From Ignavibacteriota bacterium (GTDB taxonomy: Bacteria; Bacteroidota; Ignavibacteria; UBA10030): DNA of 64,000 nt. The DNA lies in the NCBI GenBank assembly GCA_963701295.1, contig OY969585.1, positions 3,392,001 through 3,456,000 of the forward strand, read 5' to 3'. Position numbers and translations under genes: made by a program. Position 1 is the stretch's first letter. Every line of letters begins with the position of its first letter. This document shows, one piece after another, positions 11,746 to 64,000 of this stretch. The notes under the pieces were generated by a model. That model saw nothing but the letters and a program-made list of their open reading frames with translations, searched no databases and was not told where the DNA came from.

Positions 11746-12046
11746 GTCTCAACTAACGGACATTGTCAGAACACACTTTTTCTGCTGTACATCATCATTC
11801 AACAGATCATTGTGTGTTCTGAAAAGTTTTAACGGGAATTCGTCGGCGTCGGAGCTGTTTTCTGGATTGTCCATCCGCTCATCAAGAGATAAGCCTGTTA
11901 ATATGGCGGACAAGCCGGCGTTCGTACACAACTGGCGAAAAAGTAAATACTTTCAATTTCAAATGCAAGAGATATTTTTTTTGCAGGCAGAGACTGTGCA
12001 ATAGCCTTTAAATGGAACATTTTATGACCTTTTTCTAAATCCAAAT

Positions 12047-12201
12047 AAAAATTTCAGAAATCGATCTGCCATAAGGGAATAAAAAAAATCCAGAAAAAAT
12101 AATAGCGAAACCACTTTGGCTTTCGGTTTAGATTGATTCCTCTCCTATATCGATGTAGAAGCAACTTGCTGGATCTTCTGTAACGCTTAAAAGCGGGTCC
12201 C
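12047..12201. repeat. Conserved non-coding backbone segment, copy 1 (copy 2 at 54778-54933)
   Basis: Shared blocks agaaatcgat.tgccata, aaccactttg.cttt.ggtttagattgattcct.tcctatatcga.gtagaagc, gcttaaaagcgggtccc. Confidence 0.9.
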
Positions 12202-12282
12202 AGCCGCCATCCGTTAGAACGTATGAATTATTTATTGCGTATTATACCAATTATATGCCATATGTGAACATGGAGGTTTTGT

Positions 12283-21574: not shown

Positions 21575-22582
21575 TCAGTTCATATTTAAAGTTATCCTAT
21601 CTACAGCGCTGTGCAATTCTCCACCAGAGAGATGAGAATATACTTGAGTAACGACAATCGATGTGTGCCCAAGAAGCTTCTGCACCTCATAAATCCCTAC
21701 CCCGTTCTGAACAAGCCAAGTTGCGAAGGTGTGACGTAAGCTGTGGAAATGTAATTTCTTATCCAATCCAGAAGCAATTACTGCTTGTTTAAAAAGGTGC
21801 GAGATTCTTGCCTAGTCCAGATTCCATCCTTTCTCACCTACAAATACAAATTCTGATCTATGTGGAAGTGATTCTAATATTCCAAGGGCAACTACGTTCA
21901 GAGGAACGACTCTTTCTTTACCGGTTTTCGTATGAAAGCTTTCTGAATTCATTATATAGATCTGCTTGTGTGAAAAATCGACCTGATCCTACTTGAGATT
22001 TGCTATCTCACCTCGGCGCAGACCTGTATTAACAGCAAACAACACGACATTCTTGAACCATTGTTTAGGAATAACAGTAAGGAGTTTATTCATCTCCTCC
22101 CTGTTTAAATAAATAGGACGTTGATGTGGAATAGTCAGAAGTCGAATAAACTTGAAAGGATTCTTTTCGAGAATCTGCCAACGAACAGCTAATCCGAATA
22201 TTGCTTTGACTGTTCGCAGATCAATATTCACTGAAATCGGTTTTAATCTTTTTAAGCGATCAGCTTTAAAGCATTCGATATCAAGGGGAGTAACTTTGTC
22301 GAGATGTTTGTCGCCAACTGACTTGATGAAGAATCTCATCGCATAAGTTGCCTTATCAGTAGTTCCTTTTGCATGATGAATCTTAGAATATTCAAGAAAC
22401 TTCTCGAAGAATTGTGATAAGGTTAGATGAGGATAGATCGAACTTTGTTGACCTTCAAACTCTTTTAAGAATTTCTTTGCATCAATTTTATTTTTAGTTT
22501 TTGTGGATATGCGCTGCCATTTGCAGGTGCTGTTAAGATAGCAAAGGTAATAGAATCCATTTGTTCGCTTGCTGAGATACAT
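21575..22582 (-). pseudogene. Tyrosine recombinase / phage-type integrase pseudogene
   Basis: NTGLRRGEI box I and HSLRHTFA..LLGH..TQVY box II; interrupted by TAG at 21989, a frameshift near 21915 and a second TAG near 21813. Confidence 0.9.
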
Positions 22583-22713
22583 TGCAACCTCCTCAAGAAG
22601 TGTGGATGAGGTGACTGCATAGGAACAAAATAGGAACACTATGGGGTTTTTAAGACAGGAGTTTTTGAAGTAAAAATTTCAATTCGATAACTTCAATTGT
22701 ATTATCAACTTTG

Positions 22714-44483: not shown

Positions 44484-44566
44484 CGGAGAGCGAGGGATTC
44501 GAACCCCCAAGGGCTTACGCCCGCCAGTTTTCAAGACTGGTGCAATAGCCGTTCTGCCAGCTCTCC
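44484..44566 (-). tRNA. tRNA-Ser (TGA)
   Basis: GGAGAGCTGGCAGAACGGCTATTGCACCAGTCTTGAAAACTGG..GGTTCGAATCCCTCGCTCTCCG. Confidence 0.95.
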
Positions 44567-44999
44567 ATGCAAATTTCGCCACTTATTTTTCCTACACAAG
44601 ACTTTTGCTAACTTTTTTGTTAGCAAATTAGTTAGCAAATTTTTTAAGTCTTTGTCTACGATTCACTGCTATGGAACAACCCTTCACGCTCATTCGCGCA
44701 TTTTGCGATGCTTTGCAATGCGAAAAGGGCAAATGATAATTTTTTAATTGTGGAAGTTTCGAATGATTTCATTTGCACTCTAAAGATAACCAAGAAAGGA
44801 AGTGAATGCAATAGTTTAGACTCACAGTTTTTCTTACTTCTCCATAGGCAATTCGTATGCAGAAGTCAGGATTGAATTACCACAGTGACATAAATGTCGA
44901 AAAACATTTTCCTCTCTAAAAATAAAAATCCCCCATAGTTTTCACCACGAGGGATATTTCATTTTGCCAAGTCTCTTAAGCTGCAAGTGGCAATGGCAA

Positions 45000-45680
45000 A
45001 GCATAGATGCCATGCAAAACAACAACCATCTGTCCAATGTCCGGTTGGACCGCCTTTGCTATCAGCCTATCTGCCGTTCGTGCGGAAATATTCGGACACC
45101 GTTTAATAAGCTGTTTCCGTGTTAATTGTTTATCACTGCCAAACACTGTAGGCCAATCGATTTTTTGTTCTGCAGTTTCTTGGCCGGAGGATTGATCCTG
45201 TCAGGCGATGTGCGCCGATTCATCTGCTTCCCCTAAGTCGTTAAACCAGAGTGTGGATGGATTTAATTCTAATAATCGAGCTGCCCGCATCTTATCATCC
45301 CCGTGTCGGAGTTTTGTGGGTTTCAGCAATCGTTTACTTTCATCGGTTGAGGATCGACGAAACATCAGCACAGTATCCGTTGCACCAGCGAAGACGCTTG
45401 AACCGCGCATATTATCATTATGCATAGTCTCGTATCGCACTCCTTTTTTAGTGTGGTGAACGACAAGCACTGCAACCTTATAAGCGTCACGTATTTCTAC
45501 CAACTGCCGCATCAGCTCTTTCATCTCAAAACTGTCGTTCTCCTTTTTATCGTGCGACCAATACAAGCAATCAAGCACTATAAGAACAGACTGATGCACC
45601 TCTATTAACTTCTGTAGTGTCACTAGAATCGCAGAGTCACTTGGTTTTAATGTTAGCTTTGGTGGGAAAGACAAAGTATT
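45000..45680 (-). pseudogene. AAA_25/RepA-like helicase C-terminal remnant
   Basis: LIVLD (Walker B), VLVVHHTKK, MRGSS..GATDTVL typical of RecA-like MGE helicases; Walker A half absent. Confidence 0.75.
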
Positions 45681-45850
45681 CATCGAGCGACGGAACAAAT
45701 CAGAAAGTGCTGCACTAACCGAACGACAGAAGGAGAAAATACTCCGGGAAGTCACAGATGCACTGCGGAAAGCGTTGGCCGAGCTCTGACGTTTTGCCAT
45801 TTCGTCAAAAGCACTATAGAGTGTTTAACAAGATGGCAAGATGCGACTTT

Positions 45851-46510: not shown

Positions 46511-46796
46511 CTAGCACCCTTCTAGTATTTTCTTTCGTGAAATAGTTTATTTCCCTTGTTCAAAAAATTCGTTCAATAACCTAAATATTTCTCTGTCTCT
46601 TCGATATAGGGACAATGCCCGCTTTTCATTATTGCCATTACATAATTTTATCTAAGAATACTTCCCCTATTTTGTTTTCTTTCATCTCCTACACTTCTTA
46701 AAAAAATATGTTCCATTTTTTGAATTCTCTTTGGAATGTGCGTGAACTGGAGACAATTTACGTTGATAATGTAACGATTGATGATAGAAAATCAAA

Positions 46797-46970
46797 TTTG
46801 TAGTGATGGCTTGGAATAAAGTTTGATTTGCACTGCTGACTTCGAGCTAACTTTCAATTTGGTAAGCCGAGTCGCAATAAAAATTCATTTTGCACGTCCG
46901 ACTTCGACATAATTTTCGATTTGTACATCTGAGTCCGCATAAATTTTCATTTTGGCAAGCTCAATCGAGG
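46797..46970. repeat. Degenerate ~31-bp tandem repeat (5-6 units)
   Basis: tttg at 46827, 46858, 46889, 46920, 46951; unit resembles ataa.tttc.atttg.a..c.gacttcg. Confidence 0.65.
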
Positions 46971-47202
46971 ATCCAAATCGTTCAACTATCATAAAACAAT
47001 GAACTTGCAGAGTGACTGTTTTTGTTATCCTTTTGTCACTATCTTCGCAGGCTTTTGCCATCGTTTGTCATCCCTTTGCGATCTCTTAACGATCGTTTCC
47101 AATCCTTTTGCCATACCGTCACGACCCTTAAAGTATCTGGCGAGATGGCAAGATCACCTATGGTCTATATGCGTGATGTGTCCCACTATCATTTTGAATA
47201 TG

Positions 47203-47676
47203 TCAGCTTGAGCGCCTGGTAAGGCCGCTGACATCAATGATCTTATCAAATACTTCTTGAGTTTTCTTTGATTGAAAGCCAACCTGTTTATAAAACATTC
47301 TTGTTTTTTCTCGTAAGATATTTGTACGAACACGAAGATGATAACACTTTTTCTCACGTGCCCAATTTTCGGCAATTGTGATAAGTCGTCTACCAATTCC
47401 TGATCCGCGAGATGATTCCGCTACAACAAGTCCGCATATTTCTACAAAAGCATTACTTTCTAATGTCTGAATAAGGGCAATGTGAATCCAACCGACGATA
47501 GAATCAAGTTCCGCAACATAAATTCCATTGTCGGATGCAGAGGATACTTTGTAAAAGCGATTTTCCATCTCTTCCGTTGTTGTTGGATAGCCGAGTTCTC
47601 CAGAAAGTTTTGCAAGAGCGACAACATCTCTTTTCTTTGCTTCACGAATAATTAGATCTTTATTCATTTGTATCAA
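47203..47676 (-). CDS. GNAT acetyltransferase (cassette); reads through a mutated attC stop
   Basis: LVVAESSRGSGIGRRL, FYKQVGF; C-terminal GLTRRSS derives from attC GCCTTACC. Confidence 0.92.
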   Translation of the reverse strand: MIQMNKDLIIREAKKRDVVALAKLSGELGYPTTTEEMENRFYKVSSASDNGIYVAELDSIVGWIHIALIQTLESNAFVEICGLVVAESSRGSGIGRRLITIAENWAREKKCYHLRVRTNILREKTRMFYKQVGFQSKKTQEVFDKIIDVSGLTRRSS

Positions 47677-47689
47677 ATATTTTGTTGCG

Positions 47690-47845
47690 GCCTAACGGAC
47701 CGGTGCTAAGCTGCGGCGCTGATAATTATCAATGTACACAAAACGAAACAAGTTCATTCACTTTACTTTAAAATCTGCACTGAACCTATGAGCGCAATGA
47801 CTTTTGCACTCCGCTCATTCCGTCAGCTTGAGCGCCTGGTTAGGC
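47690..47845 (-). repeat. attC site (156 bp)
   Basis: gcctaacggaccggtgctaagctgcggc ... gtcagcttgagcgcctggttaggc. Confidence 0.92.
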
Positions 47846-47893
47846 GCGATGTATTTTATAAGATGATAGCGTACAGTAACATAATTAACAAAT

Positions 47894-49060
47894 TTACTTT
47901 CCTTTCTTCTCCGTAACAGCAAACGGAAGAGGATCGTAGAGGGCACGACATAGTCCTTCCGTATAGTTCCCCTTGACTGCAAGATAAGAAGATACATTCG
48001 TCAGGAGAACTACACCGACATGCGTATTCCGCTCAAAAATTACTCCAGATGTATAGCCTGGGGTGGCTCCGAACGCTCCTTGATGATTTTTGCCGCGCTC
48101 ACTGTAGGGCGCCCAACCAAGCGCTCCCGAAAAGTGCTCGTTGAATTGTTTTGTTGGTTTCTGGGCGAGGTAGAAATAAGTCGTATCAGTTATGTTCGCT
48201 TTGAGATATTTCACAAGATCTTTGGCCGAGGATTTTATTCCGCCGCAGCCGGTAAGCGCACCACAATCACCATTTCCAAAAGGGAGCAAATCGCCGTTTG
48301 GATGTCTTCCCTGAACCATTCGATGTATGCGCTCTAGTGTAAGGTCAACAAATGTGTTCTTCATTCTCAAAGGTTTACACACCATTTCAAATAATATTTC
48401 TTCGTACGATTTTTTAAATACTAATGTCAGAATGTGGCCTAACAGACCACCGCCGAGATTGGAGTATGTACGCTTTTCTCCTGGCGTAGATTGTAACACC
48501 AGTTGATGTGACAGGTAATCATAGAGTCGTTCTATACTATAGTCTTTATATGGAGCATATGGATCAAAGGGATGTTTGTCATCATTCTTTACATTGATTG
48601 GCTCAAATGGCAGACCTGATGTATGTTCGGCAAGTTGAACGAGTGTTATCTCCTTCCCATTAAGGGCAGATTGATTCAAAGTGATAGGAAGATAATTCTT
48701 TATAGGATCGTTGAGGTGAACCTTCTTGTCATACACGAGCTTAGCAAGCATGGTACCAGTAAATGTCTTAGTAATGGATCCTATTTCAAAAACGCTGTCG
48801 CTGTTCTCGACGTACACTAGGGAATCGTTGCGACGCTCAATGCCAACATACTTTTCTGAATCTCCTTTGATGATACAAATAGATAGTTGCGTTCCGTTGG
48901 GGAAATACTGAGCGCGGTCATAAACGGCCTGTGCTTGCAACGAATCTAACGAATTAGGATTACTTGTAATTGGTAACTTCGCCAGTTCTCTTGCCTTAAA
49001 AGGTGAACAGGATGTAATTACCAAAATTAGAATTATGGATAAAGTTCTAATAAGACTCAT
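47894..49060 (-). CDS. Serine hydrolase lipoprotein of the beta-lactamase-related family (cassette)
   Basis: FEIGSITK (SxxK), HTSGL, YSN; lipobox ITSC. Confidence 0.9.
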   Translation of the reverse strand: MSLIRTLSIILILVITSCSPFKARELAKLPITSNPNSLDSLQAQAVYDRAQYFPNGTQLSICIIKGDSEKYVGIERRNDSLVYVENSDSVFEIGSITKTFTGTMLAKLVYDKKVHLNDPIKNYLPITLNQSALNGKEITLVQLAEHTSGLPFEPINVKNDDKHPFDPYAPYKDYSIERLYDYLSHQLVLQSTPGEKRTYSNLGGGLLGHILTLVFKKSYEEILFEMVCKPLRMKNTFVDLTLERIHRMVQGRHPNGDLLPFGNGDCGALTGCGGIKSSAKDLVKYLKANITDTTYFYLAQKPTKQFNEHFSGALGWAPYSERGKNHQGAFGATPGYTSGVIFERNTHVGVVLLTNVSSYLAVKGNYTEGLCRALYDPLPFAVTEKKGK

Positions 49061-49112
49061 ATTTCAATATTCTCTAATCTCAGTGGACATCAAAATTGCA
49101 TTGGCACAGCGC

Positions 49113-49307
49113 GCCTAACGGTACGGCGCTAAGCTGCGGCGCTGATAATTATCAATGTACACAAAACGAAACAAGTTCATGCTGAGAACCAAATTAATAA
49201 ATATAAAAGTTATAGGTACTAAAAACTGAATAATAAAAACGAAAATCCACCACAAGCCATGCTATTTGCAGTGAGCTCATTCCGCCAGCTTGAGCGCCTG
49301 GTTAGGC
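49113..49307 (-). repeat. attC site (195 bp)
   Basis: gcctaacggtacggcgctaagctgcggc ... ccagcttgagcgcctggttaggc. Confidence 0.92.
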
Positions 49308-49397
49308 GGCAATATTAATAATAAAAAAACAGATTAAATTTCATGCCAACAAAGTTAGCGCGCCGCCTTAATTCGCTTTTTTACGGCAAATTATTCT

Positions 49398-49766
49398 CTA
49401 TTTCTTTAGATATCCAAAGCCGATTGTAATAATAGGAATACTTAAATATTTAATTCCAATCTGGCTCATATATAAGGATAATGGCATCTGCATCGGGCTT
49501 TTGGGTAGAAATAATATCAAGTCAATAACTAAATTAATTATAAGCCAAAGCAATCCCAATAAAACTCCTTCGCGAACAAAGTTTGATTCTACTTTTTTGA
49601 AGTAACGAGTCGCAAACCACACCACCGTAAAGACAATCACAACTGCCATCAAAGATTCAAACAAATAGTAATTGTAATCCTTCAATGGAAAAATAACAAA
49701 TGAAACGGCAAACGGTAGTAGCCAATCGAAGAACCCAAGCAATAAAGCTGATTTAATAGATTTCAT
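49398..49766 (-). CDS. Four-TM hypothetical protein (cassette)
   Basis: Hydrophobic 122-aa ORF with GGAG SD, bounded by attC sites. Confidence 0.85.
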   Translation of the reverse strand: MKSIKSALLLGFFDWLLPFAVSFVIFPLKDYNYYLFESLMAVVIVFTVVWFATRYFKKVESNFVREGVLLGLLWLIINLVIDLILFLPKSPMQMPLSLYMSQIGIKYLSIPIITIGFGYLKK

Positions 49767-49852
49767 AATTACTCCAAATTATTAAATATTTTCTTTAAGA
49801 TAATTATAGATTTCCCTTCAACGTCAGCAAATTCACTAAATGAAAGATTGCC

Positions 49853-50041
49853 GGCTAACGGATGGCAACTAAGCTGCGGCAACGACAATCCGCAAGTTGC
49901 TGAAAACGAACCAAGTTCATTCTGAAAAATTTATTATTAAACATTCGAACCTCTATGCGCCATGCATAACGTACCCATTTACCCGCCATGCTTTATCTTT
50001 GGGCGGGCGCTCATCCCGTCAGCTTGAGCGCCTGGTTAGGG
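49853..50041 (-). repeat. attC site (189 bp)
   Basis: ggctaacggatggcaactaagctgcggc ... gtcagcttgagcgcctggttaggg. Confidence 0.92.
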
Positions 50042-50089
50042 CGCAAGCGGACTTTTAACAGAACACCAATCGATTGCATATATTGTGAT

Positions 50090-50596
50090 TCAATCATCAA
50101 AAGCCTTAAGAAGAATCTTTTGTTTCACACTCAAGATTTTTTCAGACCTGAGGTCATAGATCTCGTAATGACCAGATGAAGTGCCGATAATTCCACCAAT
50201 GAGAAAACCGCCTGTACCTCCAAGAATCCCTCCACCTAAAGCAACAGGCCCAGGACCAAGATCGATTGCAAAGGGTTTTGGCTCTGGTTTGTGGTAGGAT
50301 TCAAAACCGATGAATGCACCTATTGCTGCACCGAACAAAAATCCTTTCCCAGCCCCATTCCAGAAAGATCCTTCCTTGAAACGTGTTAATACTGCAATAG
50401 AGTCAATAGGAATGGATATTGTTCTACAAATACATGTGGCAAAGAGAACCATATCTGGAAGGGAATCAAGCTTGCAAACACTTATTGTATCACCCGAGAA
50501 GCAGATCAACTTCCAAGCATTCTCTTGAGCCGATGAGAGTGAAACGGAAATACAAAGGATTATTATAATCACTAAGAGTGTTTTAGTTGTTTGCAT
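50090..50596 (-). CDS. Secreted glycine-zipper hypothetical protein (cassette)
   Basis: Signal peptide, GAAIGAFIG..GGFLIGGIIG; bounded by attC sites. Confidence 0.82.
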   Translation of the reverse strand: MQTTKTLLVIIIILCISVSLSSAQENAWKLICFSGDTISVCKLDSLPDMVLFATCICRTISIPIDSIAVLTRFKEGSFWNGAGKGFLFGAAIGAFIGFESYHKPEPKPFAIDLGPGPVALGGGILGGTGGFLIGGIIGTSSGHYEIYDLRSEKILSVKQKILLKAFDD

Positions 50597-50612
50597 AAAA
50601 CCTCTCTTTGTG

Positions 50613-50801
50613 CCCTAACGGACCGGCGCTAAGCTGCCGCACTGATAACTTTCAAATTGTACTAAACGAAACAAGTTCATGCTGAAAAATCTATTATTAA
50701 GAACCGAAACCTCTACGCGCAATGCTAAACGTACGCATTTACCCGTCATGCTTTATCTTTGGGCGGGCGCTCATTCCGTCAGCTTGAGCGCCTGGTTATG
50801 T
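50613..50801 (-). repeat. attC site (189 bp)
   Basis: ccctaacggaccggcgctaagctgccgc ... gtcagcttgagcgcctggttatgt. Confidence 0.92.
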
Positions 50802-50809
50802 TGCAATTG

Positions 50810-53800
50810 CTACTTAAGCAAAATAAGCTTCTTAGTTTGGGTAAACGCACCAGTCTGCAATATGTAAAAGTAAATTCCGCTCGATATATTTGCTGCATTC
50901 CATTGTTTAGAATAACTTCCTGCAGGCATTTCTTCAGAGACGATGGTAGCTACTTCTCTTCCAAGTATATCAAAAATCTTTAGTGATACAAATGACTTTG
51001 AAGGAATAGCAAAAGAGATTGTTGTTGTCGGATTAAAAGGGTTTGGATAATTTTGTGCAAGCGCAAACTCTTTCGGAACGATTCCAACTTGCCTTTCTAC
51101 AGGCAACGCTGGATTAATATTTGTTCTTAAATCAGGATAATTAGTTCCTGTCATTTGCCAGACAGTGGTAAAATCCCAACCGGCATTTATAAAAGTGGAT
51201 CTCGTTTTCATTTCCGCAGTGGTTTTGCCTGTACCGGCATCGCTCGTGGATTGCATGGAGGTTACTGTATCCCAAAAGGAACTGTCTACGGAACCACCAT
51301 TATTATATCCCACCAGACCGCCAATATAAGAACCCTTGCTGCTAACACTTCCGATAGAATAGCAATTGGTTACACCGCCAACATAATTTTCTCCCACCAA
51401 ACCGCCAACAGAAGAATTACCGTTAACACTTCCGGAGGAATAGCAGTTGCTCACTATGGAATAAGAATAATTTTCTCCCACCAGACCGCCAACATAAGAA
51501 TTATTACCGTTAACACTTCCGGTAGAATAGCTGTTGCTCACTGTGGAAATAGAAAAATTATCTCCCACCAAACCGCCAACAGAATAAGTTCCATTAACAC
51601 TTCCGGAGGAGTAGCAGTTGAGCACTGTGGAAGAATCATCATTATCTCCCACCAAACCACCAACATAACTATATCCGCTAACACTTCCGGAGGAGTAGCA
51701 GTAGGCCACTTCAGAATAATCATTAGCTCCCACCAAACCGCCAACATAATTTCGACCGGTTATACGTGCATTTGTAATCCCAAGAAACACAACCGCTCCA
51801 TATCTGTATCTTGTGTATCCAAATAAACCAATGAAATCAGTTGATGGACGATTAATAAATAAACTATCGATAGTATGTCCATTACCATTGTAGTGACCGG
51901 TAAAATTCGTTATATCATTCCCTATTGGCGTCCAACCGGCACCATTAAACCAACTTGAAGTTACTGATGCGTTAATATTTGCGGTTTGTATGTAGAATTT
52001 ATCCCAATTTTCCGTGTTTAATGCTATCCAGTATAGATTATTTAAAGACGCTATTTGATAAGCATTTCCGCTTGTGCCATTACCCACTGAAGGTGCTGTT
52101 GCAGTTTTTGGCAATGGAGTACCACCTGGGTTTTGCCAGGATAAGTAAGGGTATCCATTATTAAATCCAGCATCCATATACCATATTGAACTGTTCCAAC
52201 CGGCTAATGAAAAAGTTAATTTTGTTTTCATTTCCGCAGTGGTTTCACCAGTACCGCCATTACTTGTGGACTTACCGGATGTTTCAATATTCCAAAAGGA
52301 ATAGTTTACTGTGCCAAAATAATTATATCCCACCAAACCGCCAACATAAGAACCCGTCCCGCTAACACTTCCGGTAGAGTAACAATTGTTTACTGTGGCA
52401 GAATTATATCCAACTAGACCGCTGGTATATTCAGCTCCGCTAACACTTCCGGTAGAGTAACAATTGTTTACTGTGCCACTATTAGATCCTACCAGACTGC
52501 CAACAGAAGAACCCGTTCCGCTAACACTTCCGGTAGAGTAACAGTTGCTCACTGTGGAATAAAAATTCCATCCCACCAGACCGCCAACTTCACCATTACC
52601 GGTTATGTTTGCATTTGTAATCCCAATGCTGTCGATAACTCCACCATTTGTAGCTCCAAATAAACCAATGAAACTAGTTGATGGACGATTGATGAATAAA
52701 CCATCAATAGTATGTCCATTACCATTATAGGAACCGGTGAATTTCGTCGCACCATTCCCTATCGGCGTCCAACCGGCACCGCCGAACCAACTTGATGTTA
52801 CTGATGCGTTAATATTTGCAGTTTGTTCAAAATAGACTCCGGTAAAATTAGTTCCAGAATTAGCTTGAAATGCTATCCAGTACAAATTTTCTAAAGATGC
52901 TATTTGATATGGATTTCCACTTGTACCATCGCTTGCTGAGGGAGCTATTATAGTTTTTTGCAATGGAGTACCACCTGTGTTTTGCCAGGATAAGAAGGGA
53001 TATCCATTGTTTATTGATCCGTCTATTTTCCAAATAGTACCCGTATCATCCCAACCGACTAATGAAAAAGTGATTGGATTTTTCATATACACAGTAGTTA
53101 TACCTGTGCCGCCATCGCTTGTTCCACATCCAGAAGTTTGAGTATCCCAAAAGGAATTACTCACTGTGGATGAAGAATTATCCCCTATCAGACCACCTGT
53201 AGAATAACTAACTCCGCTAACACTCCCAGCAGAGTAACAATTATTTACTGCGGAATAATCATTTAATCCCATTAAACCGCCAATAGTACTATTTCCGATA
53301 ACACTTCCTGTAGAATAGCTGTTGCTTACCGGGGAATATTCATTCCTCCCCACTAGTCCACCGACACACTGCTTTCCATTAACACTTCCAGAGGAGTAAC
53401 ATTTGCTTACTGTGGAATAAAACCAATTAACTCCCACAAGACCGCCAACACAAGTGTCACCGGTTATGTTTGCATTTGTAATCCCAATGCTGTCAATAAC
53501 TGCTCCACTTGTGATTCCGAATAAACCAATGTAACCAGTTGATGGACGATTGATAAATAAACCATCAATAGTATGTCCATTACCATTATAGGAACCGGTG
53601 AATTTCGTCGCACCATTCCCTATCGGCGTCCAACCGGCACCGCTGAACCAACTTGATGTTATTGATGCATTAATGTCTGAGGTTTGTAAGTAGTATTTAT
53701 TCCAATTTGCCGTGCTTGATGCTATCCAGTACAAATTTTCTAAAGACGCTATTTGATAAGGATTTCCGCTTGTGCCAGCACCCGCTGAAGGTGGGGTAGC

Positions 53801-53863
53801 CGTTTGAGCAAACAATGTGCCTGCAAAAAGAATAAGAACTGAAACGAATAAAAAGTTTTTCAT
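50810..53863 (-). CDS. GLUG-repeat surface protein with T9SS CTD (3-kb cassette)
   Basis: Three ~280-aa units (GTSGNPYQIASLENL..WTPIG..FTGSYNGNGHTI..GLFG..VGGLVG repeats); LAQNYPNPFNP CTD. Confidence 0.92.
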   Translation of the reverse strand: MKNFLFVSVLILFAGTLFAQTATPPSAGAGTSGNPYQIASLENLYWIASSTANWNKYYLQTSDINASITSSWFSGAGWTPIGNGATKFTGSYNGNGHTIDGLFINRPSTGYIGLFGITSGAVIDSIGITNANITGDTCVGGLVGVNWFYSTVSKCYSSGSVNGKQCVGGLVGRNEYSPVSNSYSTGSVIGNSTIGGLMGLNDYSAVNNCYSAGSVSGVSYSTGGLIGDNSSSTVSNSFWDTQTSGCGTSDGGTGITTVYMKNPITFSLVGWDDTGTIWKIDGSINNGYPFLSWQNTGGTPLQKTIIAPSASDGTSGNPYQIASLENLYWIAFQANSGTNFTGVYFEQTANINASVTSSWFGGAGWTPIGNGATKFTGSYNGNGHTIDGLFINRPSTSFIGLFGATNGGVIDSIGITNANITGNGEVGGLVGWNFYSTVSNCYSTGSVSGTGSSVGSLVGSNSGTVNNCYSTGSVSGAEYTSGLVGYNSATVNNCYSTGSVSGTGSYVGGLVGYNYFGTVNYSFWNIETSGKSTSNGGTGETTAEMKTKLTFSLAGWNSSIWYMDAGFNNGYPYLSWQNPGGTPLPKTATAPSVGNGTSGNAYQIASLNNLYWIALNTENWDKFYIQTANINASVTSSWFNGAGWTPIGNDITNFTGHYNGNGHTIDSLFINRPSTDFIGLFGYTRYRYGAVVFLGITNARITGRNYVGGLVGANDYSEVAYCYSSGSVSGYSYVGGLVGDNDDSSTVLNCYSSGSVNGTYSVGGLVGDNFSISTVSNSYSTGSVNGNNSYVGGLVGENYSYSIVSNCYSSGSVNGNSSVGGLVGENYVGGVTNCYSIGSVSSKGSYIGGLVGYNNGGSVDSSFWDTVTSMQSTSDAGTGKTTAEMKTRSTFINAGWDFTTVWQMTGTNYPDLRTNINPALPVERQVGIVPKEFALAQNYPNPFNPTTTISFAIPSKSFVSLKIFDILGREVATIVSEEMPAGSYSKQWNAANISSGIYFYILQTGAFTQTKKLILLK

Positions 53864-53902
53864 AGGTAATTCCCTTTCATTCTATCATTAAGGGTAATTG
53901 CA

Positions 53903-54060
53903 ACCTAACGGACCGGCGCTAAGCTGCGGCGCTGATAATTTTCAAAATACACAAAACGAAATGAGTTCATGCTGAATAATTTATTATTAAGAACAAAACC
54001 TCTGCACGCCATGCGTAACGTACCCAGCTGGCAACCGTCAGCTTGAGCGCCTGGTTAGGC
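53903..54060 (-). repeat. attC site (158 bp)
   Basis: acctaacggaccggcgctaagctgcggc ... gtcagcttgagcgcctggttaggc. Confidence 0.92.
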
Positions 54061-54528
54061 AGCCTGTACGTTCTTAGTAATAAATGTGACTAGTTGATCA
54101 CTTGTCGCATTACCAATCCATTGTGCTACACCAACCTCAATTACTGGTAACGCTCGGATACCTTTGTTAATAAGTGTTTCTGGTTTCAAAGTAACATCTA
54201 TTTCTTTCAGCTCGAACCCCATTTTATGTTGTAGTTCGGTAAGTCGACGTTTGACAATTGGACAGAAAGGACAACCGACACCTGTATAAAGGATGACTCT
54301 TGTGTTAACGTGTGGAATATTTTTCGGTGGAGTGTCTTCGACTGAACCATACCCCATCAATTGAGAAAGCGACGGAAAATACCGAATGTAGAGCCTGAGA
54401 AAAAGAGCGATAAATAATATCCAAAAACAAGCTTGAAGATAATCGCCTTTGATAACATAAAATATTAAGCCACATAGAAGTATAAACCAACTGCCATAGA
54501 TAAAAGAAATGTGACATTGTTGTTTCAT
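54055..54528 (-). CDS. Membrane-anchored glutaredoxin-like protein (first cassette)
   Basis: Two TM helices then LYTGVGCPFCP..ALPVI; stop lies in GCCTAAC. Confidence 0.85.
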   Translation of the reverse strand: MKQQCHISFIYGSWFILLCGLIFYVIKGDYLQACFWILFIALFLRLYIRYFPSLSQLMGYGSVEDTPPKNIPHVNTRVILYTGVGCPFCPIVKRRLTELQHKMGFELKEIDVTLKPETLINKGIRALPVIEVGVAQWIGNATSDQLVTFITKNVQAA

Positions 54529-54558
54529 ATAAATATCCTCAAATAATAATCACAGGCT

Positions 54559-54600
54559 GCCTAACAATGATTAGACTGCATATTGCAGCCTAACTATTTC
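54559..54600 (-). other. attI-like site heading the cassette array
   Basis: Minus strand GTTAGGCtgcaatatgcaGTCTAATcattGTTAGGC: compact L/R boxes plus an upstream GTTAGGC repeat, no attC hairpin. Confidence 0.6.
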
Positions 54601-54777
54601 TCACTTCCCTTGTCAATTCAGCGCTCTTCACCTTGTCTGGATAAAAAAGATTCGTCCTGTCGGCGTCTGGTGAAAACGAGATAAGTTAACTCTCCTCTCT
54701 TATCTTGTACAGTGCAAATATGCGGCATCCTCAACTCAAAATCAAGTGTTAATCGCTGCTATTTTTCTTCTGAAAAC

Positions 54778-54933
54778 AAAAATTTTAGAAATCGATTTGC
54801 CATAGGTGACTGAAAAAAAATATCCCAAAAAATTCTGGCAGAACCACTTTGCCTTTAGGTTTAGATTGATTCCTATCCTATATCGAAGTAGAAGCTATTC
54901 CTGAAACTCTTGTAAGGCTTAAAAGCGGGTCCC
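54778..54933. repeat. Conserved non-coding backbone segment, copy 2
   Basis: Homologous to 12047-12201. Confidence 0.9.
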
Positions 54934-55150
54934 ATATTCGACATTTCGCCATATTGACAATGTCAATTGGCAAGATCGATCTTGTCATTTGTCATTTTGC
55001 AATTCCCCTATAGATTTTGACAAGATGACAATATCATAATTTGCCATTTTGCCATTTCGCCAATCACCTATAGAACGTGGCAAAACTTCATGACAATATG
55101 ATATTGACATCGCCGTCAATTCTCTAAGGTGCTGGCAAGATGACAAGATG
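54934..55150. repeat. TGGCAA/TGACAA iteron-like array with CTATAG centres
   Basis: ttgccattttgccatttcgcca..ctatag..tggcaa; tggcaagatgacaagatg shared with 21295. Confidence 0.8.
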
Positions 55151-55188: not shown

Positions 55189-55655
55189 TCATAGATAGAC
55201 GACAGCTTTTTGTTGGAGGGATTGTCGGAGGGATGGAATGTTGCGGGTGTGTCTTGAAATGTCTTTCATCGAATACCCAGCGGTTATGTCATCGAGAAAT
55301 AATCGTTCCTCGGCAGTTAGAGATTCCAGAAAGTTATTTGTGATCGCATAATCTAACGGATTGATCTTGACCGGAAGCTGAAACTCTCCGAGTGTCATTG
55401 GCCTGTCGATGTAAACACGGTCGTGATTCCAAGCATCAAGTTCACTTTTGCCAACTTCTTTTGCGGAAAATGCTGATCTACGATTTAATTCTTTCGAACG
55501 AAAATGCATCATTGACTTCATAAGTCCTAGTGTGCAGCATTTGCCAAGCCTCTCTCCTTCTTTCCAAGCTATAGTAACAAGCTCTGATCTCTGGAATTTG
55601 TCTCGCGTAAACTGTTCGCTATAATGCCACAATCTTCGTATTCTTGTTCGCTCAT
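55189..55655 (-). pseudogene. Sigma-factor-like / HTH protein with 5' frameshift
   Basis: C-terminal FLESLTAEER..GYSMKDISR resembles sigma region 4; SD-backed ATG at 55655 is out of frame with the main ORF. Confidence 0.45.
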
Positions 55656-57378: not shown

Positions 57379-57599
57379 TAAATCAAGGGGAAGAGTTCTT
57401 GCTTTTGTGTTGAAGAAGAAACATATTAGCTTTTTAGTTTTCACCCATCGCCAACGGAAACCTTTTTGTGAAACATTCAATTGGTTGAAATGTTTAGACG
57501 GGCGTCTTCATGCACAATGAAGTGTATAGTAAATTATACGAAATAATTACAAATTGTCGACCTTTTATGCCTAATAGTCATGAATTGTCGACTCAGTCG

Positions 57600-57618
57600 A
57601 CCTAATCAGTAGTTAGGC
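57600..57618 (+). other. attI-like site
   Basis: aCCTAATcagtaGTTAGGC; same layout as the 54559 site and as the class 1 attI simple site (ccctaaaacaaagtt). Confidence 0.55.
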
Positions 57619-57650
57619 GGGCAACGAATAACATAACAAGGACAACCTCA

Positions 57651-58235
57651 ATGAAGAATATCGAAACCCTAAAGCAAGCGATAATTCGTTGTTTTACCAT
57701 CTCTGGATTGATAATCGCAATCGCTTTTTTAATTTATCGGGCTGAAGTTTTTACTCCAACAATGTGGCCATTCCAATTTCTTGTTTCAGGCATTACGATA
57801 GGGATAGCATTTACTACATTTCGAGAAAAGAATTATTGAGGAGGTCTTGCATTATTATTACTTTGGTACCTTGTTCTTACCATCCCAACTTCGCAAGGCA
57901 ATTCTTGGATATTCATTCTAGAAGGTGTGTATACAGTCATCATATCTGCAGCAGTCTATTTATACATTCATATTGCTGGGAAATCATTCATAAAAAATGA
58001 AATATCCCGAATTGTCACTTCTACTTTAGTCATCGGGATATTCAACTCTCTGAATATTCTTGTCTTAAGTCTATATACTCTTCAATCGCTATTTAGCCAT
58101 TTTCCAAGCATAGTAGATGCAATGTTTCTGAATTTGAAGATTGGAGCAATGCTCGGTTTGTTTATGGGAGTAGGGATTGAGTTGGCAGATTATCTAATCG
58201 ATGCATTGTACAAGGGCAAGGACGTTGCCAGCTAA
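57651..58235 (+). pseudogene. Multi-TM membrane protein cassette with one in-frame TGA at 57837
   Basis: Frame continues REKNY*GGLALLLLW..EGVYTVIIS into the 57927 ORF; ends in attC. Confidence 0.75.
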
Positions 58236-58416
58236 CCAGCAACTCAAGCTGACAGAATGAGCGCCCGCCCAAAGATAAAGCATGGCGGGTAAATGGGTAC
58301 GTTAAGCATGGCGTGCAAAGGTTTTGTTTAATTTGAAAGTTGGGTATAATGAACTTGTTTCGTTGGGTACATTTTGAAACTTATCAACGCCGCAGCTTAG
58401 TTGCCGTCCGTTAGTT
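58230..58416 (+). repeat. attC site (187 bp), inverted relative to the 47-54 kb array
   Basis: agctaaccagcaactcaagctgac ... cgcagcttagttgccgtccgttagtt; interior matches the 49853 and 50613 sites. Confidence 0.92.
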
Positions 58417-61565: not shown

Positions 61566-61669
61566 CGTAACGTGTAATTATTGAATCCTGAGATTTTGCG
61601 CAAGAAAATAAAAAAAGATTATTACAAATAATAATTCATTGTGCATTAATAGATTTCCTTATAAATGCC

Positions 61670-61725
61670 AACTAACGGATGACGGCTAAGCTGCCGCCTT
61701 GATAATTTTCATATTATAAGTTCAT
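61670..61725 (-). repeat. attC right half fused directly to the stop codon of the upstream gene
   Basis: aactaacggatgacggctaagctgccgccttgataattttca..aagttcat. Confidence 0.75.
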
Positions 61726-64000
61726 TTCATCAAAATCAGTTTCTTTGTTTCTGCATAGGAACCAGCTTGCAGTCGATAGAAATATATTCCACTTGCTAAA
61801 TTATTTGTATTCCATTGTTTTGTGTAATTTCCTGCCGACATTTCTTCAGAGACAATGGTTGCCATTTCTCTACCTAACAGATCAAATATTTTCAATGATA
61901 CAAACGATCTCAATGGAAGAGTAAATGAAATAGTTGTGGCTGGATTAATCGGGTTGGGGTAGTTTTGCCCGAGGTTGAATGTTTTCGGTATTATGATTGA
62001 TGCGTTTTCAATTCCGGTGCGTGTGTAATCGGACCCATCATACGGAATCAGATCCGTTACCCCAGTCATATTATTTCTCGGAATGAACTGTAGTTTGTTG
62101 TTCGCCAGGAATTTGACCGTACCAAGATATTTTGGTGTATTATAAACGGAATCTCGTAAAACCGCGGCCCATTGCACCGTTGCCCGCCTGCCATTGCCAT
62201 CGTTGTCGCTCTGATTAATTGCCATACCGAAAATATTATTGACTGAAGGTATTATTGCCTCATTGCCACTATTGATGGCTGACCAGTTGACTGCTAGTTC
62301 TAATGCATATCCTCCAGGAATGATTCTTCGTGCCCACTGCTTCAGTGAATCGGGTACGCTATTCAGATTGTCCGCAGCAACTACTCCTGGCGTAGACATG
62401 CCCAGTGCTGTTAAACGTGTACTCCATATCGAATTTGTCATACTATCTGTCGGCTGTGGATCGATTTTGAGTTCGAGGCAATCATTGAACCATACAGTAG
62501 CGGAATTTCCAGAAAGAATGTTGTCCTTGACCTCTTCGTAGAGATAGAACCATTGGTCGTCCCATGCCGTCCATATCTTTGCCGAAAGATCGGCATCGTT
62601 TACCGGGGCGCCATTGTTGTTGTATGCATAAGAACGGATCTGAAGATAGCCGTCGTTAGGACCGGTTAATGCATTATAGAATGTATCTTTCAATCCATCG
62701 ATCACAATGGGGGCACTGTTCATGCTTTCAAAATTACCATGAACCAGAAACTCCCACAATGAATATTGATATGTTGTCCCCCGTTTAGTTCCGTGCATTC
62801 TCACGTAATGAGCATCAACCGGAGGGAAAGATATATATTCAGTGCCTCCATTTCCCGAAGTAGTGCCGTAAACTGTTGTCCAATTATTATTATCTTCCGA
62901 GACGTCGATGGTATAGGCAAGTGCATACGATGTTTCCCAGAAGAGCGTAACGCCGGTGATTTTATAAATTCCCTGAAGGTCTATGGAAATCCACTGAGGA
63001 TCAGAGCCCTCACTTGACCAACGCGATGTGAAATCACCGTCAAAGGCATATTGTGCAAAAAGGTTAGGAATAATAGAAAAAATGCTGGAACTGTTGGTTG
63101 GTTTATGAAGAGCAACACTCGGCAGAATAACATGGACTTTTTTCAGATTTGATGATACCATGCTCGTTCCATCGGCAAAAGAAGCTTTTGCAAAGAGTAT
63201 GTAATCGTTGGGCTGAACTTTATTCCAGAGAAATGTATAAGGCGCAATAGAGCTTTCGGATAGTTTATCCGCGTTTGCATAAAACTCAACTTTTGTTACT
63301 GCTGTATCCGACTCGATTTCTGCGCTCAATTGGATGTCTGGATTAGCATTATAAAATGTGATTACCGGTGAGGTTAACGTTACTTTCGATTTTTGTTTAG
63401 GGTGTGTCAAGAAAAAATCGACGATAAGATCGGTGCAATGTAGAGGGTAAATAAACCACGCATGCCCCCCGTGACTATAAACGTACAGCACAACATCAGC
63501 GCCAGTTCCCGGGGCCGTCCATTCTCGACCAACAACTCCGTTTGAATTATAAAGTGTATCTGCTTTATTCGAACATTTATTCTCGTTTCTCCAATGAGTC
63601 AGGATTGTATCAACACCCGATGTACCCCCGTACGCAACCATAGGATCATCTATGGCATGAATATGGATGATGGGCATCGGTGAAGAAATACTACTTATCA
63701 GACTGCTTTTTAATAATCCTGCAACGGGAGCTATTGCACAAATTTTTGTCGGCAATTTAACAGCCAGGGTATAGCATAAGAATGCACCCAACGAATGACC
63801 GGTAGCATAAACCCTCGTGGTATCGATATTATAATTCGCTTTTAGGGTATCAATTAATTCGGAAATAAAATTAACGTCCACATTGCCCTCGAGATCCCAT
63901 ACTCCACCGGATCCTCTCGGATAAACTGCAATGTAACCCATGATTTCAGCCCGTTCATTGAATCCATTTTTGTAAAGTGTGCTGTCGTTTCCTCCGCTTC
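61722..64000 (-). CDS. Esterase + Ig + F5/8 C + CBM9-like + T9SS CTD; paralog of 59028-60770, 5' end outside the window
   Basis: GHSLG, IHAIDD, GGHAW; WDDQWFYL..V.D..DCLEL..D CBM9-like; QNYPNPINP; frame open to the window edge. Confidence 0.88.
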   Translation of the reverse strand, partial: SGGNDSTLYKNGFNERAEIMGYIAVYPRGSGGVWDLEGNVDVNFISELIDTLKANYNIDTTRVYATGHSLGAFLCYTLAVKLPTKICAIAPVAGLLKSSLISSISSPMPIIHIHAIDDPMVAYGGTSGVDTILTHWRNENKCSNKADTLYNSNGVVGREWTAPGTGADVVLYVYSHGGHAWFIYPLHCTDLIVDFFLTHPKQKSKVTLTSPVITFYNANPDIQLSAEIESDTAVTKVEFYANADKLSESSIAPYTFLWNKVQPNDYILFAKASFADGTSMVSSNLKKVHVILPSVALHKPTNSSSIFSIIPNLFAQYAFDGDFTSRWSSEGSDPQWISIDLQGIYKITGVTLFWETSYALAYTIDVSEDNNNWTTVYGTTSGNGGTEYISFPPVDAHYVRMHGTKRGTTYQYSLWEFLVHGNFESMNSAPIVIDGLKDTFYNALTGPNDGYLQIRSYAYNNNGAPVNDADLSAKIWTAWDDQWFYLYEEVKDNILSGNSATVWFNDCLELKIDPQPTDSMTNSIWSTRLTALGMSTPGVVAADNLNSVPDSLKQWARRIIPGGYALELAVNWSAINSGNEAIIPSVNNIFGMAINQSDNDGNGRRATVQWAAVLRDSVYNTPKYLGTVKFLANNKLQFIPRNNMTGVTDLIPYDGSDYTRTGIENASIIIPKTFNLGQNYPNPINPATTISFTLPLRSFVSLKIFDLLGREMATIVSEEMSAGNYTKQWNTNNLASGIYFYRLQAGSYAETKKLILMK

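Follow-up and report, generated by a model that had tools for sequence, protein, structure and literature searches.

The 64,000-nucleotide stretch analyzed here, hereafter the window (positions 3,392,001 to 3,456,000 of contig OY969585.1, the single 3.64-Mb contig, C1, of the Ignavibacteriota bacterium genome G000; coordinates without a prefix are those of the window), carries a six-cassette integron array on its minus strand, headed by an attI site. The array and its circle-type junctions are real, and taken alone it is an ordinary-looking six-cassette cluster of attC sites lacking an integrase (CALIN). The point of interest is the genome-wide arrangement, in which a single intact integrase gene, intI, is accompanied by seven near-identical attI sites, six of them without an intact intI. 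Judged from sequence comparison, the one intact IntI likely serves all seven attI, and the window array likely still gains and loses cassettes. The array, which has an attI at its head but lacks an integrase, probably forms one node of a multi-site integron whose attC family is unusually long.

The intact intI (C1:3566721-3567662) lies ~120 kb from the window array and is the sole TIGR02249 match over the cut-off (453 vs 265 bits), in keeping with the initial annotation of the window, which had proposed an IntI encoded elsewhere. The protein spans positions 1-313 of the 315-position model, possesses the catalytic motifs, and finds only distant relatives (52-63%) among the IntI of named genomes; its gene is linked to an array of 17 sites. 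A full attI comprises two 24-bp palindromes placed 39 bp apart together with L and R boxes, and some copies possess a third, degenerate unit upstream. Each of the seven attI heads 6-28 attC sites or ends, with the orphan copies at C1:224104, 1796905, 2464753, 2834172, and 3172114 heading 24, 8, 28, 10, and 28, respectively. The window attI (54559..54594, minus strand) consists of an R box, the G|TT crossover at 54565, an L box, and one 24-bp palindrome, and is a 36-bp match to the intI-linked attI with 39 bp lost between the palindromes; a one-palindrome attI is also found beside the intact intI of a relative (G009:C10), where it heads at least 14 cassettes. All seven attI are joined to their first cassette at G|TT with a flank complementarity of 8 to 15 bases, and the same type of site is present in decayed form near C1:1210.4 kb.

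Trans service by the resident IntI is suggested by the attI sequences themselves, as the five full-length orphan cores differ from the intI-linked core at 0, 1, 2, 2, and 6 of 69 positions (91-100% identity) while the 190 bp adjoining the cores, present in four homologous copies, are 73-75% identical. In four orphan attI the intI-attI intergenic region survives whole or in part, without intI. Cassette content points in the same direction. Identical cassettes with identical attC of their own occur in different orphan arrays beside other neighbors (C1:234183/2473891, 2478234/3166196, and 230792/2485959), and the identity of these three duplicated cassettes ends at G|TT crossovers, which argues that cassettes move between orphan arrays. 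An orthologous intI-less attI, located behind the same gene, is followed by three different first cassettes in G001, G008, and G009 (it is decayed in G000), again arguing for service in trans; G009 holds four attI loci and one intI. Finally, five attI-like sites of other integron lineages (C1:1046726, 98958, 3339651, and 1406899; window 57587-57620) have no intI within 1.5 kb upstream, and none of their intI is intact in the genome. These sites head 0-2 attC each, compared with the 6-28 of the resident type, a difference that is consistent with the resident IntI supplying its own attI type.

The head of the window array carries further evidence. A decayed intI fragment (54605..54779, plus strand), corresponding to the N-terminal part of the gene (~codons 25-85, with indels) and divergently oriented from the adjoining attI, lies directly behind that attI. 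The initial annotation had described the array as having no IntI, which holds for an intact gene at the array but passes over this remnant. DNA searches with two IntI lineages returned three fragments besides the intact gene (C1:581.7 kb, C1:1796.7 kb, and window 54662-54779). Over 118 bp the window fragment has 76% nucleotide identity to the G010:C11 intI, which represents a second IntI lineage, with 62% protein identity to the resident IntI. The window attI belongs to the resident lineage and the adjacent stub to the other, and we infer a chimeric window head in which the two differ in origin. The array at C1:1796905 is fused to the same decayed intI piece (76-81% nucleotide identity to G010:C11 across the two copies), and the two heads are 94% identical over 199 bp with the same intI-breaking junction. 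No copy of any of the six window cassettes is found in the C1:1796905 array or in the rest of the genome; as the twin heads share their junction but no cassette, loss of intI appears to have preceded the change in their content. A palindrome unit in G004:C29 is positioned exactly at the G|TT of the other IntI lineage's attI, so that grafts of this kind recur. We also considered a secondary-site origin of the window attI, given that homology to the intI platform begins exactly at the upstream G|TT, and rejected this origin when the flank proved to be an intI remnant.

At a tolerance of five mismatches or fewer, the 24-bp palindrome occurs in the genome only at attI sites, with 0-1 matches in each of three shuffles. 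We rejected the palindromes as SOS or other genome-wide operator boxes on this ground, as a distribution restricted to attI gives no sign of a genome-wide regulon; they may serve as a local operator. The attI pattern is present in 7 of 15 same-genus genomes and in 0 of 45 other genomes. Three loci with a more divergent intI (L043, L044, and L045, from G012, G011, and G007; 72-75% amino acid identity) keep a three-unit palindromic attI in which the palindrome centers have changed, which suggests that the palindromic layout is old.

By established integron chemistry, IntI would bind the folded bottom strand of attC and excise cassettes as circles, for which the G|TT of every cognate attI, with or without an adjacent intI, would be an insertion point. 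Copies of the platform formed by intI, the cassette promoter (Pc), and attI would have spread by duplication or on integrative islands, with intI lost and attI kept. The outcome would be a distributed sedentary integron with one recombinase, several insertion and expression points, and one common cassette pool. We lean slightly toward a broader proposal, in which this lineage has a distributed integron with a single IntI supplying seven or more attI docking sites, kept by selection and dispersed over the chromosome and integrative islands. Under it, an attI module could be grafted onto what is left of an integron from a different lineage and make that integron its own, many seemingly dead CALINs would be live platforms, and the attC sites served would be 150-240 bp long with an 8-nt spacer, beyond the lengths on which standard attC models were trained.

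Profiles of both attC ends, run across the 3.64-Mb genome, gave 174 entries (116 full attC, 30 left ends, and 28 right ends), and a shuffled genome gave 0 matches above score 13. The full sites have a median length of 159 bp, and 113 of the 116 are longer than 141 bp. Published ranges are 56-141 bp for mobile integrons and mostly 120-129 bp for sedentary ones (PMC5371416), and 57-141 bp (PMC5027507) or 55-141 bp (PMC7370490) elsewhere; the median here exceeds these values, in a comparison made with the articles proper, whose supplementary length tables may list attC of similar length. The initial annotation had proposed a lineage-specific family of long attC, and this is borne out: all 15 same-genus genomes have attC left ends, and the long pattern is present in 11 of these 15 and in 21 of 85 same-family genomes. 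Anatomy was scored on 94 sites, an anchor filter having removed 22 of the 116. Of these, 88 have the canonical extrahelical G and T, but every one of the 94 has central spacers of 5 and 8 nt, departing from the usual 5-6 nt per arm (PMC5027507; up to 10 nt are allowed in PMC7370490). As a control, 99 intI loci yielded 31 attC matches in 21 loci, with spacers of 5 (13 matches), 6 (9), 7 (2), and 8 nt (7), and all of the 8-nt spacers came from family relatives or from records titled Bacteroidota. Two records so titled, L082 and L109, carry the same attC family, and together with the type IX sorting domains of cassette products they point to Bacteroidota as the group of the host.

The constrained (recombinogenic) fold is predicted with a probability >0.1 in 69 of 94 attC and in three of the five full window sites. 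An attC-like hairpin in the bottom strand had been put forward in the initial annotation as a check on the array, and the R/L stem with its extrahelical G and T does form, but whole-site energy does not go beyond that of shuffles: unconstrained folds of two attC bottom strands were no better than shuffled sequence (z -1.69 and -0.54). Fold probability did not favor the bottom over the top strand (44 of 94 attC), and top strands are slightly stabler than bottom strands (+1.96 kcal/mol). Bottom strands lie on the leading-strand template at 142 of 174 sites or ends, the window array included. At 10-kb linkage the sites form 26 clusters, comprising 12 single sites and 14 clusters of two or more, and many of the small clusters have no detected attI. 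The array at C1:224104-261266 is the only large one whose bottom strands lie on the lagging-strand template; its 24 sites are at or above the reported maximum of 22 for that orientation (PMC5371416).

Several features recur among the cassettes genome-wide. Gene-less cassette families of 191-306 bp are found at C1:230358-232391, 1799387, 2478234-2486394, and 3166196-3172047, and one gene-less cassette stands first at the 3172-kb attI. A 1365-bp insertion sequence is present in nine identical copies (C1:226045-227409, 234619, 2412902, 2474327, 2479704, 2829287, 3164986, 3557727, and 3564134), each just inside an attC left end (R'') with its transposase on the opposite strand; two diverged relatives lie at C1:2396 and 2409 kb. 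From a reading of its protein rather than a profile search, it looks like a member of the IS1111-attC group (PMC11187229). Many cassettes end in the same sorting-domain sequence.

A number of observations weigh against service of the window array in trans. Its head has lost the region of Pc and the intI promoter (Pint) through deletion of the intI-attI intergenic region, and a promoter consensus scan there returned 5 weak sites, none of them convincing, vs 2.1 expected. Both 189-bp window attC fold poorly in the model (probabilities of 3e-4 and 8e-6). No window cassette is common to other arrays, which gives no direct sign of recent traffic at the window locus, and among public sequencing runs the best word share with the genome was 0.10, with no same-strain run; the four runs compared represent other strains or species, their joints were not used as evidence of excision or habitat, and neither an excised circle nor another first cassette was seen at the window locus. 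The identical cassettes are internal to their arrays, where insertion at attC instead of attI could account for them. Instead of selection, recent exchange between attI sites, which is known to occur at low frequency (PMC4792948), or conversion could explain the high identity of the attI. As the spacer upstream of the orthologous orphan platform differs between species, independent intI losses are possible. Lastly, the island that holds the array is absent at the same site in relatives, such that the array may have been assembled in another host.

This island is bounded by an 82-bp direct repeat, part of tRNA-Ser-TGA, with the left copy at 44495..44576 and the right copy beyond the window at C1:3462775-3462856. 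It spans 26 kb, and its tyrosine integrase, at the far end, is frameshifted near its end. At 8 of 13 relative loci the tRNA continues directly to the far flank, and the other five are uninformative; these 13 were examined from 16 fetched loci, with the genome's own locus and two at contig ends left out. As relatives lack the island at the tRNA site, the array probably came with the island or was built inside it. A possible, though on balance doubtful, alternative is that the array is a frozen CALIN, built beside an intact intI in a donor and brought in on the tRNA-Ser island, that at most loses cassettes and retains attI as a passenger. The island's absence from relatives and the frameshift in its integrase are consistent with this account, as are the adjoining intI pseudogene, the shortened attI without Pc, the truncated last attC, and the lack of any cassette common to other arrays, and intI loss is a listed CALIN origin (PMC4889954). 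A frozen array does not, however, sit well with the twin at C1:1796905, which has wholly different cassettes behind the same intI-breaking junction, or with a window attI of the lineage of the resident intact IntI and not of the adjacent stub. The first junction is also perfect (14/14), and five attC are intact.

It is very improbable that the array is a rearranged piece of the main integron, or a set of cassettes inserted at secondary genomic (attG) sites, with no platform of its own. Both routes have been described (PMC4889954; bioRxiv 2022.09.11.507474), and the many small attC clusters without detected attI in this genome (12 of the 26 being single sites) would be in line with them. The first cassette, however, adjoins a 36-bp stretch that matches the intI-linked attI, complete with L and R boxes and with an intI remnant behind it, and the attI match together with the twin head already largely refutes this reading. 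Slimmer still is the chance that the sites are those of an Xer-like system without IntI, resembling integrons and occurring in Bacteroidota, or that a different tyrosine recombinase serves them. The atypical long sites and 5/8 spacers and the genome's 14 tyrosine-recombinase matches might speak for this reading, but the same attC family lies beside canonical intI here (17 sites) and in G009, G010, and G033 and its boxes and extrahelical G and T are canonical (88/94).

The junctions of the array support insertion of the cassettes as circles. The initial annotation had noted that the 5' flank of a gene matches the reverse complement of its own 3' flank, and the five matches it quoted are correct (14/14, 13/14, 11/12, 12/13, and 10/10); the sixth cassette matches at 9/10. 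Across 123 junction pairs genome-wide, in which the seven attI rows were scored as misses, the RRRY positions match 4/4 in 77 pairs (permuted mean 24.9, maximum 38 in 2000 permutations), and positions 8-12 give 434 of 615 matches vs a permuted mean of 244 and a maximum of 277. The window array has the R''/R' (RYYYAAC ... GTTRRRY) and L''/L' inverted boxes, G|TT joints, and co-oriented single genes of an integron cassette array, in which six genes alternate with five full attC and one 25-bp attC left end. Six cassettes with attC of 156-195 bp had been described, and both the cassettes and five full sites stand, with the last site reduced to the left end. That description lacked the attI and the intI remnant beside it, as well as the island, the six sister attI, and the asymmetric 5/8-nt spacers.

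In array order the five full attC measure 158, 189, 189, 195, and 156 bp and are 70-85% identical in pairs, reckoned on the shorter site. The six cassettes and their attC all lie on the minus strand. Cassette 1 (54055..54528) encodes a 157-aa protein with a glutaredoxin-like domain (PF05768), whose flanks show the 14/14 match and whose homologues occur in 4 of 15 relatives, there beside attC ends; its attC (53903..54060, 158 bp) has a constrained fold probability of 0.30. Cassette 2 (50810..53863) encodes a 1017-aa protein with GLUG repeats (PF07581) and a C-terminal sorting domain of the type IX secretion system (T9SS) type (PF18962, TIGR04183) and is followed by a 189-bp attC (50613..50801; fold probability 3e-4). 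The genes of cassettes 3 (50090..50596, 168 aa) and 4 (49398..49766, 122 aa, hydrophobic) have no Pfam or NCBIfam match, and their attC are of 189 bp (49853..50041; 8e-6) and 195 bp (49113..49307; 0.80). Cassette 5 (47894..49060) encodes a 388-aa serine hydrolase of the beta-lactamase/AmpH fold (PF00144) that is far under class C beta-lactamase cut-offs (NF033085, 107 bits vs 415), with an attC of 156 bp (47690..47845; 0.33).

Cassette 6 (47203..47676) encodes a 157-aa GNAT acetyltransferase (PF00583) that is under every named cut-off, and its reading frame extends into the attC remnant (47201..47225), whose 25 bp hold R'' and L'' only and are followed by ~500 bp of non-coding DNA. This ~500-bp sequence (window 46700-47225) is repeated at C1:2492433-2492878 (72%), behind a truncated attC at C1:2492435, and, in another species, at G007:C39/L193 (68%). 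In all three places the preceding genes differ, yet the adjoining attC is truncated at one and the same position, past L''. The sequence may represent an element that targets attC or the aberrant end of a cassette.

The tRNA-Ser island also contains another attI-like site, of a different kind, which has a single cassette and an attC of 187 bp belonging to the same family (57587..58416, plus strand), as well as more attC ends and cassettes with T9SS-type cargo genes, where no attI was detected (61662-63941 and C1:3456-3457 kb). An Rfam scan of 44-64 kb returned nothing over cut-offs except two tRNA-Ser genes. A non-coding repeat family with short GGCAAGAT-like repeats occurs at 54775-55130, 12044-12202, 21232, 45814, and 47126 and at C1:2378, 2387, 2433, 2503, and 2834 kb. 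These repeats adjoin a 147-aa open reading frame of no assigned function (55189-55632; paralogue at C1:2433 kb, 75% amino acid identity) and an AAA_25 fragment (45201-45800), and the family is probably the backbone of small integrative elements. A broken tyrosine integrase (21626-22639) beside tRNA-Leu(TAA) marks a second island in the window.

Integrons have been reported from Ignavibacteriae (PMC9024848); PMC8352920 gave nothing further for this lineage. With at least two attC and no intact intI nearby, the window array falls within the CALINs of Cury et al. 2016 (PMC4889954) and Neron et al. 2022 (PMC9024848), by our own count and not by IntegronFinder output; toward a complete integron it has the attI at its head, while the adjacent intI is only a decayed fragment. 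Half of CALINs have an IntI elsewhere in the replicon and 15 of 279 an adjacent intI pseudogene (PMC4889954), and the window array has both. According to the same survey, CALINs arise by intI loss, rearrangement, or secondary-site insertion, and unrecognized attI could not be searched for; CALINs are treated as degraded elements with fewer cassettes expected in PMC9024848. Here, by contrast, a cognate attI is retained at six orphan arrays, of which three (24, 28, and 28 sites) exceed the intI-linked array (17). Action in trans is described in PMC4889954 as excision and recapture at the integron's own attI, with similar statements in PMC9668308, PMC8618304, and a Xanthomonas preprint. In the titles, opening lines of abstracts, and selected passages of the mainly open literature that we searched, we found no publication on several cognate orphan attI under one IntI.

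Like sedentary chromosomal integrons of the Vibrio cholerae type (PMC5371416), this genome has a homogeneous attC family, >100 cassettes, leading-strand-template orientation, and stabler top strands (+1.96 here vs +1.71 kcal/mol). Unlike those integrons, which form one array, it holds 14 clusters of two or more sites, and the window array, though chromosomal with homogeneous attC, sits in a tRNA-integrated island. Compared with attI1 of class 1 integrons (65 bp, with L/R boxes, DR1, and DR2; PMC12901181, PMC4792948), the attI described here is similar in its length (~69 bp), its L and R boxes, its G|TT crossover, and its repeated upstream box-like sites, but it has 1-3 tandem 39-40-bp units, each a palindrome of back-to-back boxes. 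Several attI1 in one cell, moreover, normally each have their own intI1. Insertion at attG and the resulting single attC sites lacking an integrase (SALINs; bioRxiv 2022.09.11.507474) likewise place cassettes far from intI and may explain the single sites of this genome, although the head of the window array is a true copy of attI and no GWT-only site.

CALINs and complete integrons occur in similar numbers (2961 vs 2760; PMC9024848), and their origin and activity are unsettled because attI is unrecognized in most lineages. One intI with several cognate orphan attI in a complete chromosome makes trans insertion directly testable, site by site. If the orphan attI work, each cell would have several first positions for expressing new cassettes, and islands lacking an integrase could still bring a docking site, ready for use, from host to host. 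The range of known IntI substrates would be widened by the long attC family with 5/8 spacers, which tools trained on 55-141-bp sites may under-count. If the distributed integron holds true, many CALINs regarded as dead would be live insertion platforms whose attI went unsought.

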